From Octopus vulgaris (lineage: Eukaryota), in the NCBI GenBank assembly GCA_951406725.2, contig OX597827.1, positions 47,554,001-47,618,000 of the forward strand: a DNA stretch of 64,000 nt, read 5' to 3'. A program made the translations under genes and the position numbers. This document shows, piece after piece, positions 14,728-60,464 of this stretch (within the stretch, counting starts at the first letter, position 1; each line of letters opens with the position of its first letter). Under the pieces are notes generated by a model. The model was not told the origin of the DNA, did no database searches, and worked only from the letters and a program-made list of their open reading frames with translations.

Positions 14728-14960
14728 AAGGCGTCGAGCTGGCAGAAAAGTTAGCGCGCCGGGCGAAATGCTTAGCGGTATTTGGTCTGTCATTACGTTC
14801 TGAGTTCAAATTCCGCCGAGGTCGACTTTGCCTTTCATCCTTTCGGGGTCGATAAATAAAGTACCAGTTTCGCACTGGGATCGATGTAATCGACTTAATC
14901 GCTTTGTCTGTCCTTGTTTGTCCCCTCTATGTTTAGCCCCTTGTGGCTAGTAAAGAAATA
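14728..14960 (+). mobile_element. Full tRNA-derived SINE family A
   Basis: aggcgtcgagctggcagaa head, gagttcaaattcc, gcctttcatcctttcggggtcgataaa core, gccccttgtggctagtaaagaaata tail. Confidence 0.9.
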
Positions 14961-36715: not shown

Positions 36716-37004
36716 AAACATTATTATTGTAAATAGTAACAGCAGCTGAATTAGGAGTCGTAGTTGAAGTAATAGTAATAAAAGTGTTATTATGTTGATG
36801 TGAAATGTGATATGATTAGCGGTAAAAAAAATCTAATAAACGCGTAAATATAAACTACGAAATGAAAAAAAAAAAACCCAGTAAAGCAAATCTAAAAGTA
36901 TCGAGAAAGGAAAAACTAATAATCTGAGTTGCATTGAGCAAAATTCTATGATTGAGAAATTTTTTTATCAGTGAACTGAATAAGTGTAAGCTAAAAGACC
37001 AGAG

Positions 37005-37790
37005 GTGGAGGCGCGTCGCTTAGTGGTTAGGGTGTTTGTAAGATAGTGGTTTCGATTCCTGGATCGGGCGACGTGCTGTCTCTTTGAGCAAAACACTTCA
37101 TTTCACGTTGCTCCAGCCCACTCAGCTGGCAAAAATGAGTAACGCTGCAATGGACTGGCGTCCCATCCAGCTGGGGAACACATACGCCATAGAAACCGCC
37201 ATAGAAACCATGAGCCTGGCTAGGCTTTAAAAGGGCGCATTTGTGGAGGCGCGTGGCTTAGTGGTTAGGGTGTCAGCATCATGATCGTAACATTTTGGTT
37301 TCGATTCCTGGACCGGGCGACGCGTTGTGTTCTTGAGCAAAACACTTCATTTCAAGTTGCTCCAGTCCACTCAGCTGGCAAAAATGAGTAACGCTGTGAT
37401 GGACTGGTGTCGTCCCGTCCAGGTGGGGAACACATACGCCATAGAAACCGGGAAACCGGTCCCATGAGTCTGGCTAGGCTTTAAAAGGGCGCGAGAAACG
37501 ACCAGAGAGAAACAAAATAAGTTAATGAATAATACAATATATATGGGTGGAGGCGCGTGGCTCAGTGCTGTTGGACTCACGATCGTAAGACTGTGGTTTC
37601 AATTCCTGGACCGGGCAACGCGTTGTGTTCTTGAGCAGAACACTTCATTTGACGTTGCTCCTGTCCACTCAGCTGGCAAAAATGATAAATCCTGTGACGA
37701 ACCGGCATCCCATCCAGGGTGGGGAATTTATAGGCCATGGAGACCATAGAAACCGGCCTTATGAGTTTGTATGACTCGGAAAGGAACTTT
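37005..37790 (+). mobile_element. Three tRNA-derived SINE B-type copies (37005-37242, 37243-37492, 37547-37790)
   Basis: gtggaggcgcgtggcttagtggttag (A box)..ggtttcgattcc (B box) three times; first two directly head-to-tail. Confidence 0.9.
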
Positions 37791-38825: not shown

Positions 38826-39360
38826 AGGTAGCGAAATGCTTAGCAGCATTTAGTCCGTCTTTACGTTCCGAGTTCAAATTCTGCCGAGGTGGGCTTTGTC
38901 TTCAATCATTTCATGGTAGATAAATTAAATTAAGTACCAATGAGTACTGGGTGGATAAAATAAGTACCAGCTGATTACTAGGGTCGATGTAATCGATTAC
39001 TCACCAACCGCCACATTTCAGGCCTATAATAGAAAGGATTTATTCTTCTTCTTCTTCTTCTTCTTCCGTATTTCGTCTGCCTCCACGTTATGAGGTCAAA
39101 TTCCGCCGAGGTCCACTTCACCTTTCATCCTTTCGGGGTAGATTAAATAGGTACCATTTACGCACTGGGGTCGATTTAATCGACTTAATAAGTTTGTCTG
39201 TCCTTGTTTGTCCTCTCTCTGTTAAGCCCCTTGTGGGTAGTAAAGAAATAGGCATTTCGTCTGCCACTACGTTCTGAGTTCAAGTTCCGCCGGGTTTGAC
39301 TTTGCCTTTCATCCTGCACTCTTAAATTTCGGGCCATGTGCCACTAGTGGAAAGGATTAT
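38826..39360 (+). mobile_element. Cluster of SINE family A copies and fragments
   Basis: Repeated gttcaaattccgccgagg core; tail gccccttgtgggtagtaaagaaata at 39226-39250. Confidence 0.8.
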
Positions 39361-39377
39361 TATTACTATAAATAGTG

Positions 39378-40593
39378 ATTTCTTTATTAAGATTATATAA
39401 TCTTATACATAGAATTACAAATACATAACAAACATGCAAAACAAATAATTAAGAGGTTCGCTATTTAAAAATTTTTTTTTTTTTATAACATTTGTATTAA
39501 AAATTCGTTTTTTTAAATTGTCCTTTATATAACCAGTAGCATCTTTATCACAGTTCAAACCCCGGCAATTTACAAGCCCCGCAGCTTTTATTTCCTCTCC
39601 TCCCTCCATAGTTAAGCTGGGTTTCTAACACCCACCTTTCTTTCCACTTCCTTCCATCTTTTCTCATACACGCCCCGTGGTAAGCTCCTCTTCTCCAGCC
39701 CCATTTTGCTCTTCAGATGATATCTGAAGTAAGTGAGCAAGCCGGGGCCGGAGACAAAGGTTCCTATCGCGGCTCCTTCCATTCTCGTTCTCCACATGCA
39801 TTCTTTTACTACTGCAACCGTACAGTGAAAACATGCCTCACCTTCCTTCGAGAGTCCAGTTGGCGGTATCATCTTAATCATAGACTCAGCCGACAGCTGT
39901 ACTCGTCCTAGATGCGATAACACGTGTTCTGCGTAACTTATCAAGTCTGACAACTTCCGACAGTGTACAAAGGCGTGTTGAACGGTTTCATCGTCCAACT
40001 CGCACCTTGGACACGTCGGTGGCACTGGAATTCCGTGCCGCGATAACTTCTCGCGAACAGGTAGAGCGTTCCTATAACACTGCCAGGCCAGGGATCTTTG
40101 GAAATTATCCAAGTACCCCGTCCTGAAAGTCTTTTTAAACAGGTTGGTAAGCTGGTCTTCATCAAACCCCAGAGCCCCTCCTAGGACGTCGTCGTTTTTT
40201 TCCTCTACCAGCCTTCTATAAAATACCGAGGTGGTATTTCCGCAGCCGGCCTTGCCCGCCTTGTGGATCAGCGTGAGTGCCTGTCGGCACTCCCTTTGCC
40301 ACAAAGTCAGTTTCCATCTTTTGATGCGACCGGGTTTAAAATCCGTTAAGGAGGCCAGTCTCGGGAAAAATTTCCCTGCCAGCGGACTCCACACCTTATC
40401 ACCCTCCAGGTGGTGCCAGAGATGCTTCAGCCTCAACGCATGTCTGCGCATCATCAGCCAAGGCATTCCTAACCCACCCTTTAACGGTTCCTGGCAGCAA
40501 ACGGAGCGCCTCACAAGTGGCTTTCCTCCCTTCCACAAAAAGCGGAAAAGGATTCGCTCCAACTTGTTAAGCCATGAACCGGGGCAAGGGACA
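39378..40593 (-). mobile_element. 5'-truncated L1/Tx1-clade non-LTR retrotransposon
   Basis: ORF2 C-terminal part plus 3' UTR ending aataaagagaaat; homology stops abruptly near 40593. Confidence 0.85.
39612..40562 (-). CDS. C-terminal third of L1/Tx1 ORF2 (post-RT region with zf-RVT cysteine motif), no true start
   Basis: ILFRFLWKGGKPLVRR..CCQ...GGLGMP, LAWQCYRNALPV, CPRCELDDETVQHAFVHC (CX2C..H....C). Confidence 0.85.
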   Translation of the reverse strand: MERILFRFLWKGGKPLVRRSVCCQEPLKGGLGMPWLMMRRHALRLKHLWHHLEGDKVWSPLAGKFFPRLASLTDFKPGRIKRWKLTLWQRECRQALTLIHKAGKAGCGNTTSVFYRRLVEEKNDDVLGGALGFDEDQLTNLFKKTFRTGYLDNFQRSLAWQCYRNALPVREKLSRHGIPVPPTCPRCELDDETVQHAFVHCRKLSDLISYAEHVLSHLGRVQLSAESMIKMIPPTGLSKEGEACFHCTVAVVKECMWRTRMEGAAIGTFVSGPGLLTYFRYHLKSKMGLEKRSLPRGVYEKRWKEVERKVGVRNPA

Positions 40594-41605
40594 TATGTTC
40601 ACATTCTTTGGCCATTAAGGGTGACGATATTTCATCTGCGTTTGTTCTTCGTCTTATACGTTCCCTAGAAACACTCCAGCGCGTTTGCTGCGAGTTTAGT
40701 TACCGTCAACGCGATAGTGCAACAGGCGGTTCTAGACTACGTGTTACTAGCAGTCCTTACAAAGGGGCTGGCATAGTCTCTGTATTTGGAATACCAGATA
40801 CCACAAGCAAAAATAATTTATCAGTTAATGGATTATTCAGTTTAAATATATTTTTATGAAGTTGAATCTAAGAGATTGCTTTTTGTCTTCTTCAAGAGAA
40901 ATTTTCTAAAATGGAAATGAGTTATGCATAGTTTAGAATACATCGCTGATATTATACAAACGGAATGTGCACAGAAAATTTTAATGAACGTTTTATAGGA
41001 AATACACACAAGATGATATGTGCTTCTTGGAGAAGAGGGGAAAAGGAGAGAGATGGTAATGAAATAAAGTAAATATTGGAGAAAAAATACAGCAATTTCG
41101 ATATGAGAATAGCAAACAATATTGAAAAGTCAACATCAGCGCTTTTAGAATCATTTGTGTAAGGGCCATAACGTTTTTAGACACGTTAACATTCCTTAAT
41201 TAAGTAAGGAATGAATTCATATTGCATTCATTGTGAGGACGGATTATTTGATTTAAGTTTATGAATAGCATTAAGTAGATTAAGCTGAAAAGAAAATGAA
41301 ACTGTATTGAGTAATTTAAATATGAATGCAGATATCTATTGGAGAATTTTGATTCGTCGAAATATCAAAAATAGATAAATATTATTTAAAAACGGAAGGT
41401 TACCTAAAAGTGTTAGCTACAGAAATATGTGCAAGGCTGTATAATGGAAGGTTTCTTATGAGAGATAACGGTAAAAAAGAACAAAAAGCGTTGTTGTTGT
41501 TGTGGAAATTCTGAACGGCGTTGACGCGGTTTCGCGTTTCGCTCGTTCAGCGCGTTACACTTTTTCTGTTTTGGAGGCCGTTCTCGGTCTGTCAGACAGA
41601 AGGAG

Positions 41606-43020
41606 ATGGACTATGAGTCTCTAACAGACTTGTCCACGACAGATGAGGAACTGGAACAGGCAATTGCAATGAAGCTGATGGAAGAAAAGGCTGGAGTTTT
41701 CGAGTCTTTATCAGACCTGTCTACGTCTGAGAAGGAGCTAGAAATGGCAGCAAGGAATTTGGAAGAGAAGCTGGGTTATACCTATGCCGGTGTAACCAAG
41801 AAGGCGGAAGAGAAAGGGGTCGACATGGCCAAGTTGCCAAGTTACCAGAAATACATGAAAAAGGAAAGTGGTGAGGTGGAACTATCACCGACACCCAGGA
41901 GAAAAGAATGGTATGATAAGAGGACGATTAGTTACAGGGTGTTCGCAAACGAAAGGAAGAGGGTAGAAGTTGTAACCATGGAATGGATAGAGGAAGCCCT
42001 GCGAAGAACTGAGGAGGAAATAAATTTTCTGACTCGAGGATCCAAGTACGGTACCGTAGTTGTGCATTTCAAAACTGAGTCTGCAGCGAGGAAGATGGCG
42101 GCGAAGGCGGTGAAGTCAGAAAAGGTAACCCTATTACCTACGTATTTAAACAGGAGGATTACACGAATAAGGGTGGAGGGAGTGCCACCAAACGTGGAGG
42201 CAGAATGGATTGTGGCGGCTGTGATCGGCGGCCGCGAGGACGAGGTGGATATTCTCCATGCCTCGGTTGGGTCCGAGGGCTGGAGAGGAGTAACAGTGGA
42301 GCTGAACGTACAGGCAGAGACCGAGGTACTGGTGGACCTGACGGAAAGCATCAGACTGGGAGACGTGATCATGAGAGTGTGGGTGGAGGGCAGGGCTCCA
42401 CGCTGTTACAAGTGTGGCCTGAGGGGTCACATAAGAGCCTTCTGCCCTCCCCCAGGGAAAGAAACGGATTCCGAACCAGAGAGAGAGAAGCAGAAACCAG
42501 AGGAGAAGGAAACAGAGGAAGAGAATACACAGAAATGGAAGGAAGCTGGAAGTAAGAGGAAGAGAAGAATTCATGGAAAAGAAAATAATATGGAACTTCA
42601 ATCTACCCCAAAACCACCCACACCCTCTGAGTCCCACCCTATCCATGCAGACATTGAACCCACCCGCTCCCCCCCAACAAGAAAACAAAAGAAAAAAAGA
42701 ATACACACACACAAGAGATTGAAATCGAACCCAGGCCGTACATTTGTACTATGACTGAACAGAGGGAAGTTAAAAGTCTAATGGAAGAGTATAAATGGTA
42801 TGATGTTGGAGAGACTAGGTATGCTGTGATTGAAAAGAAGAACATAGGTGAGTTTATGGGGAGGTGTGAAAGGGAGAATTGGGAGGTGAAAGATATAAGA
42901 ATGAGCGATGAATTCGTGGAAAATATGAATGAGTATTTCGGAGTAAGAATGGATATGGAATTTATTCGTATTGGCAAAGAACATTCAAGTGACTATGAAA
43001 AACAAAGGACAGGTAAGTGA
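41606..43020 (+). CDS. LINE ORF1/gag-like protein, copy 1 (~471 aa if one A-run frameshift near 42690-42710 is corrected)
   Basis: RRM-like segments (GTVVVHFKTESAA; RIRVEGVPP), CCHC knuckle CYKCGLRGHIRAFC at 42404-42445, basic KRKRR; C-terminus is in frame in copy 2. Confidence 0.8.
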
Positions 43021-43369
43021 TGCTGACGGACGGGGCCGTTGGTATCGCTTTCATTTTATCATTTTTTTCGTTTAACAATTCATGTTCATATAGTTTAATT
43101 ATAATGTTCTATGTCCCCATGTCTTTTGCTGTCCCCCTCTGTGTCGCCCCTTAGTGGGTAATAAAAAAAAAAAAAAAATAAAATAAAAAAAAAAATAAGG
43201 CTGTATAATGGAAGGTTTCTTATGAGAGATAACGGTAAAAAAGAACAAAAAGCGTTGTTGTTGTTGTGGAAATTCTGAACGGCGTTGACGCGGTTTCGCG
43301 TTTCGCTCGTTCAGCGCGTTACACTTTTTCTGTTTTGGAGGCCGTTCTCGGTCTGTCAGACAGAAGGAG

Positions 43370-44792
43370 ATGGACTATGAGTCTCTAACAGACTTGTCCA
43401 CGACAGATGAGGAACTGGAACAGGCAATTGCAATGAAGCTGATGGAAGAAAAGGCTGGAGTTTTCGAGTCTTTATCAGACCTGTCTACGTCTGAGAAGGA
43501 GCTAGAAATGGCAGCAAGGAATTTGGAAGAGAAGCTGGGTTATACCTATGCCGGTGTAACCAAGAAGGCGGAAGAGAAAGGGGTCGACATGGCCAAGTTG
43601 CCAAGTTACCAGAAATACATGAAAAAGGAAAGTGGTGAGGTGGAACTATCACCGACACCCAGGAGAAAAGAATGGTATGATAAGAGGACCGATTAGTTAC
43701 AGGGTGTTCGCAAACGAAAGGAAGAGGGTAGAAGTTGTAACCATGGAATGGATAGAGGAAGCCCTGCGAAGAACTGAGGAGGAAATAAATTTTCTGACTC
43801 GAGGATCCAAGTACGGGTACCGTAGTTGTGCACTTTCAAAACTGAAGTCTGCAGCGAGGAAGATGGCGGCGAAGGCGGTGAAGTCAGAAAAGGTAACCCT
43901 ATTACCTACGTATTTAAACAGGAGGATTACACGAATAAGGGTGGAGGGAGTGCCACCAAACGTGGAGGCAGAATGGATTGTGGCGGCTGTGATCAGCGGC
44001 CACGAGGACGAAGTGGATATTCTCCATGCCTCGGTTAAGTCCGAGGGCTGGAGAGGCGTAACAGTGGAGCTGAACCCCCAGGCAGAGACCGAGGTACTGG
44101 TGGACCTGACGGAAAGCATCAGACTGGGAGATGTGATCATGAGAGTGTGGGTGGAGGGCAGGGCTCCACGTTGTTACAAGTGTGGCCTGAGGGGTCACAT
44201 AAGAGCCTTCTGCCCTCCCCCAGGGAAAGAAACGGATTCCGAACCAGAGAGAGAGAAGCAGAAACCAGAGGAGAAGGAAACAGAGGAAGAGAATACACAG
44301 AAATGGAAGGAAGCTGGAAGTAAGAGGAAGAGAAGAATTCGTGGAAAAAAAGAAAATAATATGGAACTCCAATCTACCCCAAAACCACCCACACCCTCTG
44401 AGTCCCACCCTATCCATGCAGACATTGAACCCACCCGCTCCCCCCCAACAAGAAAACAAAAGAAAAAAAAGAATACACACACACAAGAGATTGAAATCGA
44501 ACCCAGGCCGTACATTTGTACTATGACTGAACAGAAAGAAGTTAAAAGTCTAATGGAAGAGTATAAATGGTATGATGTTGGAGAGACTAGGTATGCTGTG
44601 ATTGAAAAGAAGAACATAGGTGAGTTTATGGGGAGGTGTGAAAGGGAGAATTGGGAGGTGAAAGATATAAGAATGAGCGATGAATTCGTGGAAAATATGA
44701 ATGAGTATTTCGGAGTAAGAATGGATATGGAATTTATTCGTATTGGCAAAGAACATTCAAGTGACTATGAAAAACAAAGGACAGGTAAGTGA
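43370..44792 (+). CDS. ORF1/gag-like protein, copy 2 (frameshift near 43690, compensating indels 43815-43845)
   Basis: Same protein; reads continuously through the knuckle to ..KQRTGK*. Confidence 0.75.
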
Positions 44793-45127
44793 TGCTGACG
44801 GACGGGGCCGTTGGTATCGCTTTCATTTTATCATTTTTTCGTTTAACAATTCATGTTCATATAGTTTAATTATAATGTTCTATGTCCCCATGTCTTTTGC
44901 TGTCCCCCTCTGTGTCGCCCCTTAGTGGGTAATAAAAAATCAGAAATATGTGCAAGGCTGTATAATGGAAGGTTTCTTATGAGAGATAACGGTAAAAAAG
45001 AACAAAAAGCGTTGTTGTTGTTGTGGAAATTCTGAACGGCGTTGATGCGGTTTCGCGTTTCGCTCGTTCTGCGCGTTAAACTTTTTTCTGTTTTGGCGGC
45101 CGTTTTCGGTCTGTCAGACAGAAGGAA

Positions 45128-46559
45128 ATGGACTATGAGTCTCTAACAGACTTGTCCACGACAGATGAGGAACTGGAACAGGCAATTACAATGAAGCTGA
45201 TGGAAGAAAAGGCTGGAGGTTTCGAGTCTTTATCAGACTTGTCTACGTCTGAGAAGGAGCTAGAAATGGCAGCAAAGGAAATTGGACGAGAAGCTGGGAT
45301 ATACCTATGCCGGTGTAACCAAGAAGGCGGAAGAGAAAGGGGTCGACTTGGCCAAGCTACCAAGTTACCAGAAATACATGAAAAAGGAAAGCGGTGAGGT
45401 GGAACTATCACCGACACCCAGGAGAAAAGAATGGTATGATAAGAGGACCATTATTTACAGGGTGTTCGCAAACGAAAGGAAGAGGGTAGAAGTTGTAACC
45501 ATGGAATGGATAGAGGAAGCCCTGAGAAGAACTGAGGAGGAAATTTATTTTCTGACTCGAGGATCCAAGTACGGCACAGTAGTTGTGCATTTTAAAAGTG
45601 AGTCTGCAGCGAGGAAGATGGCGGCGAAGGCGGTGAAGTCAGAAAAGGTAACACTGTTACCTACGTATTTAAACAGAAGGATTACACGAATAAGGGTGGA
45701 GGGAGTGCCTCCAAACGTGGAGGCAGAAGTGGATTGTGGCGGCTGTGATCAGCGGCCACGAGGACGAAGTGGATATTCTCCATGCCTCGGTTAAGTCCGA
45801 GGGCTGGAGAGGCGTAACAGTGGAGCTGAACGTACAGGCGGAGAACGAGGTACTGGTGGATCTTGCGGAAAGCATCAGACTGGGAGACGTGATCATGAGA
45901 GTGTGGGTGGAGGGCCGGGCTCCACGTTGTTACAAGTGTGGCCTGAGGGGTCACATAAGAGCCTTCTGCCCTCCCCCAGGGAAAGAAATGGATTCCGAAC
46001 CACAGAGAGAGAAGCAGAAACCAGAGGAGAAGCAGAAACGAGTAGAAGAGGAAGAGAATACATAGAAATGGAAGGAAGTTGGAAATAAGAGGAAGAGAAG
46101 AATGCGAGAAAAAAAAGAAAATAACATGGAACACCAATCTACCCCAAAACCACCCACAGCCTTTGAGTCCCACCCTATCCATGCAGACATTGAACCCACC
46201 CGCTCCCCCCAACAAGAAAACAAAAGAAAAAAAAAGAATACACACACAGACAAGAGATTGAATTCGATATCAGGCCGTACATTTGTACTATGACTGAACA
46301 GAAAGAAGTTAAAAGTCTAATGGAAGAGTATAAATGGTATGAAGTTGGTGAGACTAGGTATGCTGTGATTGAAAAGAAGAACATAGGTGAGTTTATGGTG
46401 ATGTGTGAAAGGGAGAATTGGGAGGTGAAAGATATAAGAATGAGCGATGAATTCGTGGAAAATATGGATGAGTATTTCGGAGTAAGAATGGATATGGAAT
46501 TTATTCGTATTGGCAAAGAACATTCAAGGGACGATGAAAAACAAAGGACAGGTAAGTGA
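45128..46559 (+). pseudogene. ORF1/gag-like protein, copy 3 (several frameshifts or stops)
   Basis: Fragments 45128-45397, 45282-45794, 45736-46065, 46290-46559. Confidence 0.75.
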
Positions 46560-46914
46560 TGCTGGCGGATGGGGCCGTCGGTATCGCTTTCATAATATCA
46601 TTTTCTTTCACCTAACAATTCATTTTTCATAAATTTTAATTATAAATGTTCTATGTCCCCATGTCTTTTGCTGTCCACCTCTGTGTCGCCCCTAGTGGGT
46701 AATAAAGAAATTTAAAAGTGTTAGCTACAGAAATATGTGCAAGGCTGTATAATGGAAGGTTTCTTATGAGAGATAACGGTAAAAAAGAACAAAAAGCGTT
46801 GTTGTTGTTGTGGAAATTCTGAACGGCGTTGATGCGGTTTCGCGTTTCGCTCGTTCTGCGCGTTAAACTTTTTTCTGTTTTGGCGGCCGTTTTCGGTCTG
46901 TCAGACAGAAGGAA

Positions 46915-48325
46915 ATGGACTATGAGTCTCTAACAGACTTGTCCACGACAGATGAGGAACTGGAACAGGCAATTACAATGAAGCTGATGGAAGAAAAGGC
47001 TGGAGGTTTCGAGTCTTTATCAGACTTGTCTACGTCTGAGAAGGAGCTAGAAATGGCAGCAAGGAAATTGGACGAGAAGCTGGGATATACCTACGCCGGT
47101 GTAACCAAGAAGGCGGAAGAGAAAGGGGTCGACTTGGCCAAGCTACCAAGTTACCAGAAATACATGAAAAAGGAAAGCGGTGAGGTGGAACTATCACCGA
47201 CACCCAGGAGAAAAGAATGGTATGATAAGAGGACCATTATTTACAGGGTGTTCGCAAACGAAAGGAAGAGGGTAGAAGTTGTAACCATGGAATGGATAGA
47301 GGAAGCCCTGAGAAGAACTGAGGAGGAAATTTATTTTCTGACTCGAGGATCCAAGTACGGCACAGTAGTTGTGCATTTTAAAAGTGAGTCTGCAGCGAGG
47401 AAGATGGCGGTGAAGTCAGAAAAGGTAACACTGTTACCTACGTATTTAAACAGAAGGATTACACGAATAAGGGTGGAGGGAGTGCCACCAAACGTGGAGG
47501 CAGAGTGGATTGTGGCGGCTGTGATCAGCGGCCACGAGGACGAAGTGGATATTCTCCATGCCTCGGTTAAGTCCGAGGGCTGGAGAGGCGTAACAGTGGA
47601 GCTGAACGTACAGGCGGAGAACGAGGTACTGGTGGACCTGGCGGAAAGCATCAGATTGGGAGACGTGATCATGAGAGTGTGGGTGGAGGGCAGAGCTCCA
47701 CGTTGTTACAAGTGTGGCCTGAGGGGTCACATAAGAGCCTTCTGCCCTCCCCCATGGAAAGAAATGGATTCCGAACCAGAGAGAGAGAAGCAGAAACCAG
47801 AGGAGAAGGAGACAGTAGAAGAGGAAGAGAATACACAGAAATGGAAGGAAGTTGGAAATAAGAGGAAGAGAAGAATGCGAGGAAAAGAAAATAACATGGA
47901 ACACCAATCTACCCCAAAACCACCCACACCCTCTGAGTCCCACCCTATCCATGCAGACATTGAACCCACCCGCTCCCCCCAACAAGAAAAAAAAAGAAAA
48001 AAAGAATACACACAGACAAGAGATTGAATTCGATATCAGGCCGTACATTTGTACTATGACTGAACAGAAAGAAGTTAAAAGTCTAATGGAAGAGTATAAA
48101 TGGTATGAAGTTGGTGAGACTAGGTATGCTGTGATTGAAAAGAAGAACATAGATGAGTTTGTGGTGAGGTGTGAAAGGGAGAATTGGGAGGTGAAAGATA
48201 TAAGAATGAGCGATGAATTCGTGGAAAATATGGATGAGTATTTCGGAGTAAGAATGGATATGGAATTTATTCGTATTGGCAAAGAACATTCAAGGGACGA
48301 TGAAAAACAAAGGACAGGTAAGTGA
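46915..48325 (+). CDS. ORF1/gag-like protein, copy 4 (one frameshift in the A-run near 47990-48010; 3-codon deletion)
   Basis: 370-aa ORF plus C-terminal part in another frame. Confidence 0.78.
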
Positions 48326-48913
48326 TGCTGACGGATGGGGCCGTTGGTATCGCTTTCATAATATCATTTTCTTTCACTTAACAATTCATTTTTCATAAAT
48401 TTTAATTATAATGTTCTATGTCCCCATGTCTTTTGGTGTCCACCTCTGTGTCGCCCCTAGTGGGTAATAAAGAAATAAATGCCAGACAGGAAACTGAATA
48501 TTATTAAAGAATATAATCGAAGATAGAGATCCACGAACAGCATTGTGCATTACTCCATTAATAAATGGGAGTCTAGAATATCCAACCAAGAGCTTACATA
48601 CAATAATCTTCAAATATTTTATCTCACAGTTTTAGGAAGCTGCACTCGCTTTACAGCGTTCCACATTAATATGATATCACTCTACAGTGTGAAGCAGAAG
48701 AGAGAAACGAAAGATGCGTGGAGATAAATGATAATTAAGGTTTAATGTAGTAGGTAAATGTGAAGGCGGTTAATCGCCCATTTAAGTGCATATGTACCAT
48801 GATTACGAGGTTTGTATCTGAAGCGATGTGTGTGCAAATACAGAGATAGGGAACATTATATATATATTGATGAATGAATATTTAACTGGGTTGGAGTTCT
48901 GGAGATGAATATA

Positions 48914-53146: not shown

Positions 53147-59120
<5,974 letters not shown>

Positions 59121-59122
<2 letters not shown>

Positions 59123-60464
59123 CAGGCCTTTGCTAGTTAACCCATAGCTGGAACTCTTACAGGTGCTACCACTCTGGGCCAGAGTAGACCTGGGAACAAA
59201 GTGGCTGAAGGTTTATATATATATATGAGTCCTTTTTCCTTATATCCCCCCCCGTGATGTTTATAGTCATACCGGATCTTTTCTAAAAGATGGACATAAT
59301 TTCTACTTAACTAAATAATTTGAAACTTCGTATACTGGTAGAATGTGTCAAAAGAAAACATTAATTCCAATTAGTTTTTTTGAGAAAATTGTATTTTGTA
59401 ACTTTTACGTAGTTTAATTCTTCGAATTTTAACCAATGAAATCCCAGCATTTGAGCTAAATTCAGTTGCTGCGTCTAAGTAAACAGCAGACACACACACA
59501 CGCACACGTGTTATTCATCCATCACTTCTGTCTGCTGTCTTCTGCAGGTGCTAGAAATAACAGTTATATCTCTTAAATCGATGTATTTCGTCGCCCAATA
59601 AAAAAATTAACGATATTTTTTAAATATTTTCTTAATTTTTTTTTTCCGAAAAGGCTTCTCCCATGTTTATTTCAATGTCATCCCTGACTTACGGAACGAT
59701 TACCTGTGTGTGTGTCTTTTTGTTGTGTATGTGTGTGCGTGTGTGTGTGTTATTGTTGTGTATGTGAGTGTGTGTGTGTGTTTCTTTGTTGTGTATGTGT
59801 GTGTGTGTGTTTTTTGTTGTGTATGTGTGTGTGTGTTTTTGTTGTGTATGTGTACGTGTGTGTGTGTGTTTGTTGTGTATGTGTGTGCGTGTGAAGTATG
59901 TAAGTGGTGCGTTAGGCATGTCTTTATATGAAATAAATAACAAGACAATGCGTGGTAACCGCAACAAAAAATTGATGTCCTGCGAAAGCGGACCGAATAC
60001 GAAGGTGTTTTAAAAGTCCAAAAAATATCGTTAATATTTTTATTGGGCGACGAAATTCATCGATTTAAGAGATATAGCTGTTATTTCTAGCACCTGCAGA
60101 AGACAGAAGACAGAAGCGATGGATGAATAACACGTGTGCGTGTGTGTGTGTCTTACACGCAGCAACTGAATTTAGCTCAAATGCTGGGATTTCATTGGTT
60201 AAAATTCGAAGAATTAAACTACGTAAAAGTTACAAAAAACAATTTTCTCATAAAAACTAATTGAAATTAATGTTTTCTTTTGACACATTCTACCAGTATA
60301 CGAGGTTTCAAATTATTTAGTTAAGTAGAAATTATGTCCATCTTTTAGAAAAGATCCGTCATACCAATGTGATCTATGCCTTGACCCGAGCACTCACCTC
60401 TTGAGCTGAGGAATGAAGAGAATGCCTGGTCTGCGGCTCCTAAAACATGGGGAATAGGCCTGGG
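59121..60464. mobile_element. Short-TIR element (cccaggcct / aggcctggg) in (TA)n, hosting a MITE
   Basis: 9-bp inverted termini abutting TA repeats on both sides. Confidence 0.55.
59274..60357. mobile_element. Merlin-type MITE with ~345-bp arms and 8-bp TSD
   Basis: GGATCTTTTCT.../...AGAAAAGATCC termini, TSD gtcatacc at 59266-59273 and 60358-60365; central GT-rich minisatellite 59705-59893. Confidence 0.88.

Follow-up and report, generated by a model that had tools for sequence, protein, structure and literature searches.

We analysed a 64,000-nucleotide stretch of DNA from Octopus vulgaris (assembly GCA_951406725.2, contig OX597827.1, positions 47,554,001 to 47,618,000), referred to here as the window, which holds an array of four retroelement units that each carry a first open reading frame (ORF1) and no ORF2. 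The element is almost certainly an ORF1-only, non-autonomous member of the L1/Tx1 group. The explanation that best fits the array and its relatives, with a probability of about 0.6, is that the units were mobilised in trans, inserted one after another in front of the copies already resident and were joined to these through homology. That the array in the window grew by stepwise retro-insertion is very likely, and this repeated insertion before resident copies is a more unusual part of the system than the ORF1-only anatomy. In window coordinates the array is laid out as follows.

41405..41468, plus strand: unique left flank, whose final 36, 49 and 64 bp recur in the three spacers.
41469..43196, plus strand: unit 1, with 5' untranslated region (UTR) at 41469-41605, ORF1 at 41606-43020, 3' UTR, hairpin-AATAA tail and an A-rich run.
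42404..42445, plus strand: zinc knuckle CX2CX4HX4C of the unit 1 ORF1, found at the equivalent place in all units and preceded by two predicted RNA recognition motif (RRM) domains.
43197..43232, plus strand: spacer 1, a 36-bp duplication of flank 41433-41468 (100% match).
43233..44940, plus strand: unit 2, with ORF1 at 43370-44792 and indels near 43691 and 43817-43846.
44941..44989, plus strand: spacer 2, a 49-bp duplication of flank 41420-41468 (100% match).
44990..46712, plus strand: unit 3, with ORF1 at 45128-46559, of a subfamily that differs from that of units 1-2.
46713..46776, plus strand: spacer 3, a 64-bp duplication of flank 41405-41468 (100% match).
46777..48477, plus strand: unit 4, with ORF1 at 46915-48325 and a tail that joins the right flank.
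48438..48477, plus strand: 3' tail of unit 4, with GTCC-TCTGTGT, the GCCC/GGGT hairpin (48453-48465) and AATAAAGAAAT.

An earlier note on this DNA had described four ORF1-only units beginning at 41406. The array is real, and its units of about 1.7 kb each lie head to tail with starts at 41469, 43233, 44990 and 46777 and AATAA ends at 43164, 44935, 46705 and 48470; the first 63 bp as then drawn are flank, and the body begins at 41469. The anatomy given for a unit was largely right. In each, a 5' UTR of about 137 nt is rich in CpG (observed to expected CpG 1.8-2.1, against 0.6 in the ORF) and is followed by an ORF of about 470 codons with a single CX2CX4HX4C knuckle and two RRM-like segments, and by a short 3' UTR of 142-148 nt from stop to tail with no ORF2. 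The AATAA ends are mostly AATAAAGAAAT and not poly(A). As assembled, ORF1 is broken in all four units. Units 1 and 4 have one frameshift each (near 42706-42712 and 48008-48024), both near residue 369 in A-rich sequence, and unit 4 has a 9-bp in-frame deletion as well; unit 3 has frameshifts near 45277 and 45728 and an in-frame stop at 46063-46065. Since the units diverge pairwise by 1.3-5.4%, the array is neither collapsed nor a chance repeat. Unit 1 is closest to unit 2 (1.29%), units 3 and 4 differ by 1.5-1.65%, and the two pairs are 4.4-5.4% apart. Unit 4 differs by 0.4-0.6% from a solo copy on contig C7 (0.42% at the closest), against 1.53% from unit 3.

The same element is found throughout the genome. 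A DNA search in which 20 of 575 candidates were scored yielded 67 matches spread over 13 contigs, and a 30-nt motif across the stop codon has 189 exact genome-wide matches, while its reversed control has 0. The first 100 of the 189 fall into 35 loci, which are 29 head-to-tail trains (94 matches), 5 solo copies and one pair of fragments. All 5 of these solos are 5'-truncated and 3 have target duplications of 16-20 bp. Among the 115 family ends in the regions fetched, some of which lie beyond those 100 matches, 114 reach the tail 142-148 nt past the stop and the remaining one has a variant tail. The continuation into ORF2 that the earlier note had warned of is seen in 0 of the 115 copies examined. 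The family lacks ORF2 and shows 5' truncation and target duplications, as expected for the HAL1-type ORF1-only class. A-to-I edited RNA, once reverse transcribed, gives A>G changes, and a full-length solo copy at C3:135.1 (L047) has 33 A>G among its 42 private substitutions on the sense strand, with 1 T>C; this copy was likely retrotransposed from an edited RNA. Two other copies, L214 and L218, also appear by eye to be A>G hypermutated in a strand-specific way. Beyond the window's own family, here family A, there are further ORF1-only families (B, B2, C, D and E) with a shared architecture and 30-61% protein identity, and the search with family C (150 of 24,472 candidates scored) returned many open frames of 430-490 codons.

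The ORF1 protein appears to have been maintained. An uninterrupted ORF is present in 7 of 36 near-full-length family copies, and intact natural relatives are 471-472 aa long. The AlphaFold2 model, built from a 30-sequence alignment, has a confident core at residues 71-280, mostly with a predicted local distance difference test (pLDDT) of 79-93. Foldseek on this core gave 12 matches at E<=0.001, all to tandem-RRM proteins as listed (best E 6e-5), in line with the two RRM-like segments that had been noticed from the letters. The four C/H residues of the knuckle are unchanged across 30 ORF1s. After the knuckle the model predicts a disordered linker and then a small alpha/beta domain of 90 residues at the C-terminus, with a pLDDT of 85 in the best of five models and 54-68 in the others. 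For this domain the best Z was 4.7, Foldseek gave zero matches at E<=0.001 and the Atlas gave nothing usable; for a predicted fold, such a missing match would indicate neither novelty nor function. Pfam on the window ORF returned zf-CCHC matches below threshold and nothing else, and a profile search of the PDB with ORF1 retrieved knuckle proteins and no L1 ORF1p. The nearest database proteins are hypothetical proteins labelled Octopus vulgaris, and among 1.84 billion representatives a profile search picked out 53 proteins at E<=1e-30, nameless and without context. The comparison of nonsynonymous to synonymous rates (dN/dS) that the earlier note had proposed gave, over the RRM-knuckle core, ratios of 0.07-0.26 for 17 divergent pairs, 0.24-0.63 for 4 that are nearly identical and 0.03-0.06 for 2 autonomous ones, with one pair saturated; the pairs are non-independent and the copies were chosen for open frames. 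By these ratios ORF1 is under purifying selection.

A candidate for the machinery that moves the family was found inside the trains themselves. This element is 5.2 kb long; its ORF1 is of CCHC type, and its ORF2, with the domains Exo_endo_phos, RVT_1 and zf-RVT, has human L1 ORF2p as its closest solved relative (E 1e-55). Judged by its ORF2 domains it is an L1/Tx1-type element, and putatively a Tx1-like one. The tail of the window units also terminates 29 of the 30 top partner copies, and only there are the two elements clearly alike in DNA, with 88% over 34 nt. An abundant repeat, which we take to be a short interspersed element (SINE), carries the same tail with 81% over 42 nt. Copies of it lie in the window at 14730-14960 and 39066-39250, with 3' ends matching the unit and partner tail, and its head doubles as an insertion target (L048, L049, L042). 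In an alignment of 12 tails the hairpin before AATAA keeps its pairing, by eye, while its sequence shifts between families. From this shared tail we consider it likely that the partner mobilises the window family in trans. The ORF1 of the partner is only 28% identical to that of the window, and the same holds for the other autonomous families found; because the autonomous ORF1s are only about 28% identical, the ORF1-only family is an old lineage and not a fresh deletion. In the unrooted ORF1 tree the ORF1-only and autonomous rows separate at 88/86 support only. The earlier note's proposal of a non-autonomous family analogous to HAL1 is upheld by the dispersed copies with the same ends, the truncated solos, the edited copy and the autonomous partner. 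A candidate lying closer, an L1/Tx1-type fragment next to the array (39612-40598, minus strand), was set aside: its family ends in AATAAAGAAAT without the GCCC/GGGT hairpin. The fragment is part of a 5'-truncated 3' end of another autonomous L1/Tx1-type family with zf-RVT (39376-40600, minus strand), which builds its own 5.28-kb head-to-tail arrays, for instance at C9:59.21-59.25 Mb and C5:29.18-29.21 Mb.

How the array grew can be read from its junctions, where the analysis goes beyond the earlier note in finding nested spacer duplications, a 25-nt 5' loss shared by the units and growth by repeated insertion before resident copies. All four units begin at one shared base and lack about 25 nt of the 5' end found elsewhere. 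The left flank at 41405..41468 has only four matches genome-wide, every one within the array, and the spacer lengths rise toward the 3' end (36<49<64 bp). Had a unit entered an existing spacer, the duplication 3' of it could have been no longer than that spacer. Each insertion must therefore have been made at the front, and the order would have been unit 4 as the founder, then units 3, 2 and 1, the youngest. The comparison with other sequencing runs, which are assembled as collapsed contigs, revealed an empty site. Contigs of runs X4 and X7 (organisms B and C) join 41468 to 48478 through 57 other letters, and in run X6 (organism A) the sequence departs from the window at 41468 and agrees with X4 except for one letter. 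These 57 bp are absent at the junction of unit 4 with the right flank. The right junction is present in X1 and X2 (organism A) and the left in X2, whose contig crosses 41250-41498 unbroken; that of X1 breaks at 41441, a weak hint that the number of units varies.

Where the incoming copies came from is indicated by their alleles. For 7 sites that separate units 3 and 4, and for 5 that separate units 1 and 2, both alleles occur in at least 5 copies at other loci, and 60 of the 100 units that have a train mate find their nearest relative in another train. Given that the subfamily and allele data place the donors elsewhere, the incoming copies must have adopted the truncated junction of the founder. 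An adopted junction is the outcome that would be expected if a new cDNA were joined to a homologous resident, and we infer such a join from the junction anatomy at a handful of loci. The window pattern recurs in other unique DNA at C4:80.14, where 27 bp of flank are duplicated. The two fragments at C4:93.63, each 452 bp long and lacking a 5' UTR, were truncated at one and the same point, and in the front fragment stretches of two subfamilies are patched together. A truncated unit at C4:45.68 stands 7 bp before a resident, and its duplication is an ordinary one of 16 bp; the two kinds of join are therefore both found.

In the mechanism we propose, a founder was followed by three further non-autonomous copies, each of them target-primed and placed immediately upstream of whichever copy then stood in front. 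Unit 4 would have arrived first, with its 25-nt 5' truncation and a 57-bp target deletion. Each unit's own ORF1 protein would coat its RNA in cis, and the hairpin-AATAA tail would be bound by the ORF2 of the partner. For TRE5-A such a division, with ORF1 preferring to act in cis and ORF2 provided in trans, was shown (PMC3159450). The ORF2 of the partner would nick the DNA tens of bases upstream of, or within, a resident relative and prime from a few bases of match to the RNA end. The new cDNA could then be joined by pairing with the homologous resident and would copy the resident's 5' junction, with the effect that the stretch from nick to junction is duplicated. The long trains elsewhere would later have been lengthened by local block duplication too. 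Template jumping between RNAs in a single event was rejected for the window, where the spacers are local flank. The priming step may be related to a further observation, made by eye: the bases after AATAA vary by subfamily and tend to match the start of the target (for instance AGA before AGA), with examples in L032, L046, L264-L278 and window 44935-44947. This suggests priming by microhomology with a read-through RNA.

Across the genome the family lands in a small number of settings. Of the 30 top partner copies, 23 share one position in a repeat of about 1 kb, and among the best 30 copies of this site 7 are filled and 23 are empty. The repeat begins with 5' TC, ends in a 3' hairpin plus CTAG and sits between A and T, which we take to fit a non-autonomous Helitron; Rfam gave nothing real at the site, only microsatellite-driven miRNA matches. 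The landing site lies in a decayed ORF1 remnant (profile match with an independent E-value, iE, of 5e-7; empty sites L183-L210), which makes the main target itself a fossil of this element group. The Helitron-like repeat flanks 23 of the 35 loci. Other subfamilies occupy the SINE head or a repeat that is presumably mariner-like (three loci). The longest trains have 14 units (on C2) and at least 14 (on C1); the trains mix families and include the partner, which is frequently, not invariably, near the 3' end. In one set of the loci examined, young family-A units stand before family B in all 7 trains that hold both. The 3' neighbours of family A are mostly tail-sharing elements: 92 of the 115 family-A 3' ends adjoin the 5' end of an element sharing the tail and 8 adjoin the interior of one, with 5 at the Helitron-like site, 1 at a SINE, 8 at other DNA and 1 unparsed. 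The trains lie within chromosomes and are flanked on both sides (C1 142.9 of 225.7 Mb, C2 138.8 of 215.6 Mb). A spacer present seven times on C2 matches another target and not the local flank, so some spacers must be tags carried in the RNA.

Several observations weigh against stepwise insertion in trans with a homology join. Units 1-2 and 3-4 are mutual nearest or near-nearest relatives, and 40 of the 100 units have their nearest relative within their own train. The distance to the nearest relative lacks a steady rise toward the 3' end in most trains. In the long trains at C2:138.77, C8:32.27 and C4:45.68, blocks at 0.0-0.2% divergence with repeated spacers mean that amplification at the DNA level is real there. 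A full-length solo exists (C3:135.1), one repeated target accounts for 23 of the 35 loci, and the support for mobilisation in trans consists of the shared tail and co-location. Additionally, most nicks cluster at a few positions of the 5' end, about -62 and -33 from the body start, a pattern that a sequence-specific nuclease would produce as well, and family C enters the first 17 bp of family A without homology in the body; a sequence-specific endonuclease with a regenerated target covers both of these well. That homologous resident sequence is the main homing cue, among the cues considered, we rate as only slightly better than even.

A bolder version of the homology idea is that an RNA bearing short tags from its last target at either end, along with its own body, pairs with matching chromosomal DNA and so steers the borrowed endonuclease and reverse transcriptase to earlier copies. 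We regard this as a tentative and rather doubtful proposal. If it were true, target choice would be heritable in the passenger RNA and reprogrammable, and it would account for sister subfamilies at unrelated targets (Helitron-like, mariner-like, SINE head, hammerhead, own 5' ends) as well as for mixed trains like those of HeT-A growing inside chromosomes.

The rival that survives best needs no homology search. In it the ordinary sequence specificity of Tx1-type elements, or a tether formed by a protein at the promoter of the element, directs insertion, and the cut motif is duplicated so that the site is hit again. The single base position shared by the partner copies in the Helitron-like repeat, the filled fraction of the best site copies, the 14-19-bp duplicated tag of many units and the insertion of family C, whose protein is only about 30% similar, into the opening 17 bp at the 5' end of family A would all follow from it. 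It also has precedents (statements on cited papers refer here and below to the portions available): tandem SINEU-3 insertions, mobilised by Tx1, sandwich the target duplication (PMC4494074), and TRE5-A uses ORF1 to integrate about 50 bp upstream of TFIIIB that is bound to the DNA (PMC3159450). However, the founder in the window is missing the 5' motif that is usual elsewhere, and the three nicks at this locus fall in unique flanking DNA, where they have no sequence in common. The duplications, at 27-68 bp, are longer than the stagger of 16-20 bp seen with solos, a 5' UTR is absent altogether from the C4:93.63 pair, and related subfamilies with near-identical tails use unrelated targets (Helitron-like, mariner-like, SINE head). 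On balance we consider it unlikely.

Local re-insertion in cis, by which a read-through RNA of flank and unit is reverse transcribed at its own site and duplicates the stretch from nick to tail, would explain the nested flank and the common 5' junctions directly, and neighbours are often sisters, as are units 1-2 and 3-4. It is an improbable account of the whole, as units 2 and 3 belong to separate subfamilies (5%), which requires at least one event from elsewhere, unit 3 is without the 9-bp deletion of unit 4 and shares alleles with distant copies, and families of about 30% protein identity are mixed in trains. A single insertion followed by tandem amplification of the DNA (unequal crossing-over, slippage or rolling-circle copying) would suit the head-to-tail order and the near-identical periodic blocks of other long trains. 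In the window all the spacers differ in length and each begins directly after a tail, the tails differ and two subfamilies are present, which makes this very improbable. An amplifying domesticated RNA-binding gene like ZCCHC3 or L1TD1, the other option of the earlier note, or else an assembly artefact, is hardly credible: purifying selection on ORF1 and language-model look-alikes that include the ZCCHC3 RBD cluster at 0.90 would suit the former, and no single read crosses the whole array in the data compared, but the site is empty in three runs (X4, X7 and X6), one with the same organism label, the 189 matches are dispersed with truncated solos bearing target duplications and no single fixed locus, both outer junctions occur in two independent runs, and the units differ by up to 5.4%.

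Some side observations concern relatives and neighbours of the array. Older ORF1-only subfamilies with a different tail hairpin (L211-L230, for example L220 3820-3892, minus strand) insert directly upstream of hammerhead-ribozyme-like motifs. A descriptor of the hammerhead core lies within 110 nt of 16 of 25 tails of these subfamilies, compared with a background of 0.7%, and most of the tails lacking it precede another unit instead. One such motif gave an Rfam match to Hammerhead_HH9 (E 6e-8) that stays under the gathering score. Rfam on 7 loci gave none at gathering level, and a 70-kb E-value scan found no hammerhead, yet a focused scan found one. Our literature search returned no report of long interspersed elements (LINEs) targeting hammerheads. 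At L220 an autonomous element with reverse transcriptase stands before an ORF1-only unit. Elsewhere in the window there is a 5.9-kb microsatellite array of AT-dinucleotide type (53178-59120), an inverted pair of about 350 bp with 94% identity (59273-59621 and 60020-60358), possibly the ends of a small DNA transposon, and three degenerate direct repeats of about 240-270 bp that are 74-78% alike (37004-37769).

ORF1-only retroelements are known from few lineages, and the reason for keeping the protein is unclear. In this large and old radiation ORF1 stays under selection and autonomous partners live on next to it, which would let the need for ORF1 in cis, tail recognition and partner switching be compared. 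The trains record the order of insertion, and they present a LINE system which, by piling up on its own copies, stays out of host genes, much as the telomeric arrays of Drosophila do, but at internal positions. If homology steers insertion, this would be a natural route of RNA-directed integration, of interest for gene insertion based on retrotransposons. In a more practical sense, the trains are mis-annotated as hypothetical genes and may explain some of the octopus repeat hotspots.

Each ingredient of this system has a precedent, and we did not find their combination in print, with Repbase outside the search. The 2026 repeat annotation of O. vulgaris has 80 L1-Tx1 families, 13 of them recently active, and mentions neither ORF1-only elements nor trains in the first two of its three text parts and the supplement (PMC13282606). 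In the available text of the octopus LINE paper PMC9115989 a term search found no Tx1, and the octopus train system is undescribed in the literature searched, including the available text of the mollusc SINE paper PMC4758252.

Among known systems, ORF1-only derivatives include HeT-A, HAL1 and Ag-Sponge (PMC5786205, PMC5753468). The HAL1 of mammals is a non-autonomous derivative of the L1 group that encodes only ORF1p (PMC5753468, PMC5786205), and the window family is likewise non-autonomous, of the L1 group and ORF1-only. It differs in its mollusc host and independent origin, in a stringent-looking tail hairpin common to partner and SINE where HAL1 has a plain poly(A), and in its targeted head-to-tail trains, which the available text of the same two papers does not mention for HAL1. 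It stands outside the mammalian HAL1 lineage, with its Octopus database labels, its CCHC knuckle and an ORF1 that aligns with local octopus autonomous ORF1s. HeT-A forms head-to-tail arrays mixed with its autonomous partners TART and TAHRE, with additions at the 5' side (PMC5537684), and the octopus element shares the selected ORF1, the mixed head-to-tail arrays and the 5'-side growth. Unlike HeT-A, which is of the Jockey clade and sits at chromosome ends, it belongs to the L1/Tx1 group, occupies dozens of internal sites, has target duplications between its units and has no known host job. Tx1L inserts into Tx1D and SINEU-3 into Mariner-N4, with tandem insertions that sandwich the target duplication (PMC4494074), which resembles the insertion into a non-autonomous DNA transposon and the sequential tandem insertions seen here. 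In the octopus, by contrast, the passenger encodes ORF1 and builds trains of 14 or more units that mix families; these also begin in unique DNA, with long variable flank duplications and inherited 5' junctions. TRE5-A.2 of Dictyostelium is an ORF1-only derivative that uses ORF2 in trans and ORF1 in cis (PMC3159450), and it too integrates a short distance upstream of a landmark. That element is a recent deletion derivative with a tRNA gene as landmark, whereas the octopus ORF1 shares about 28% identity with any of the autonomous ORF1s found, and the family serves as its own landmark. Zepp of green algae is a LINE that gathers in clusters of nested copies (PMC3446292); it is autonomous with one cluster per chromosome, while the octopus trains are ordered head to tail at many loci and consist mostly of ORF1-only units. 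The octopus element is thus HAL1- and HeT-A-like in its working and a member of neither lineage, and what sets it apart is how its traits come together: an ORF1-only radiation of several families, old and under selection, stacks with its autonomous partner into trains at internal sites and takes over the junctions of the residents.

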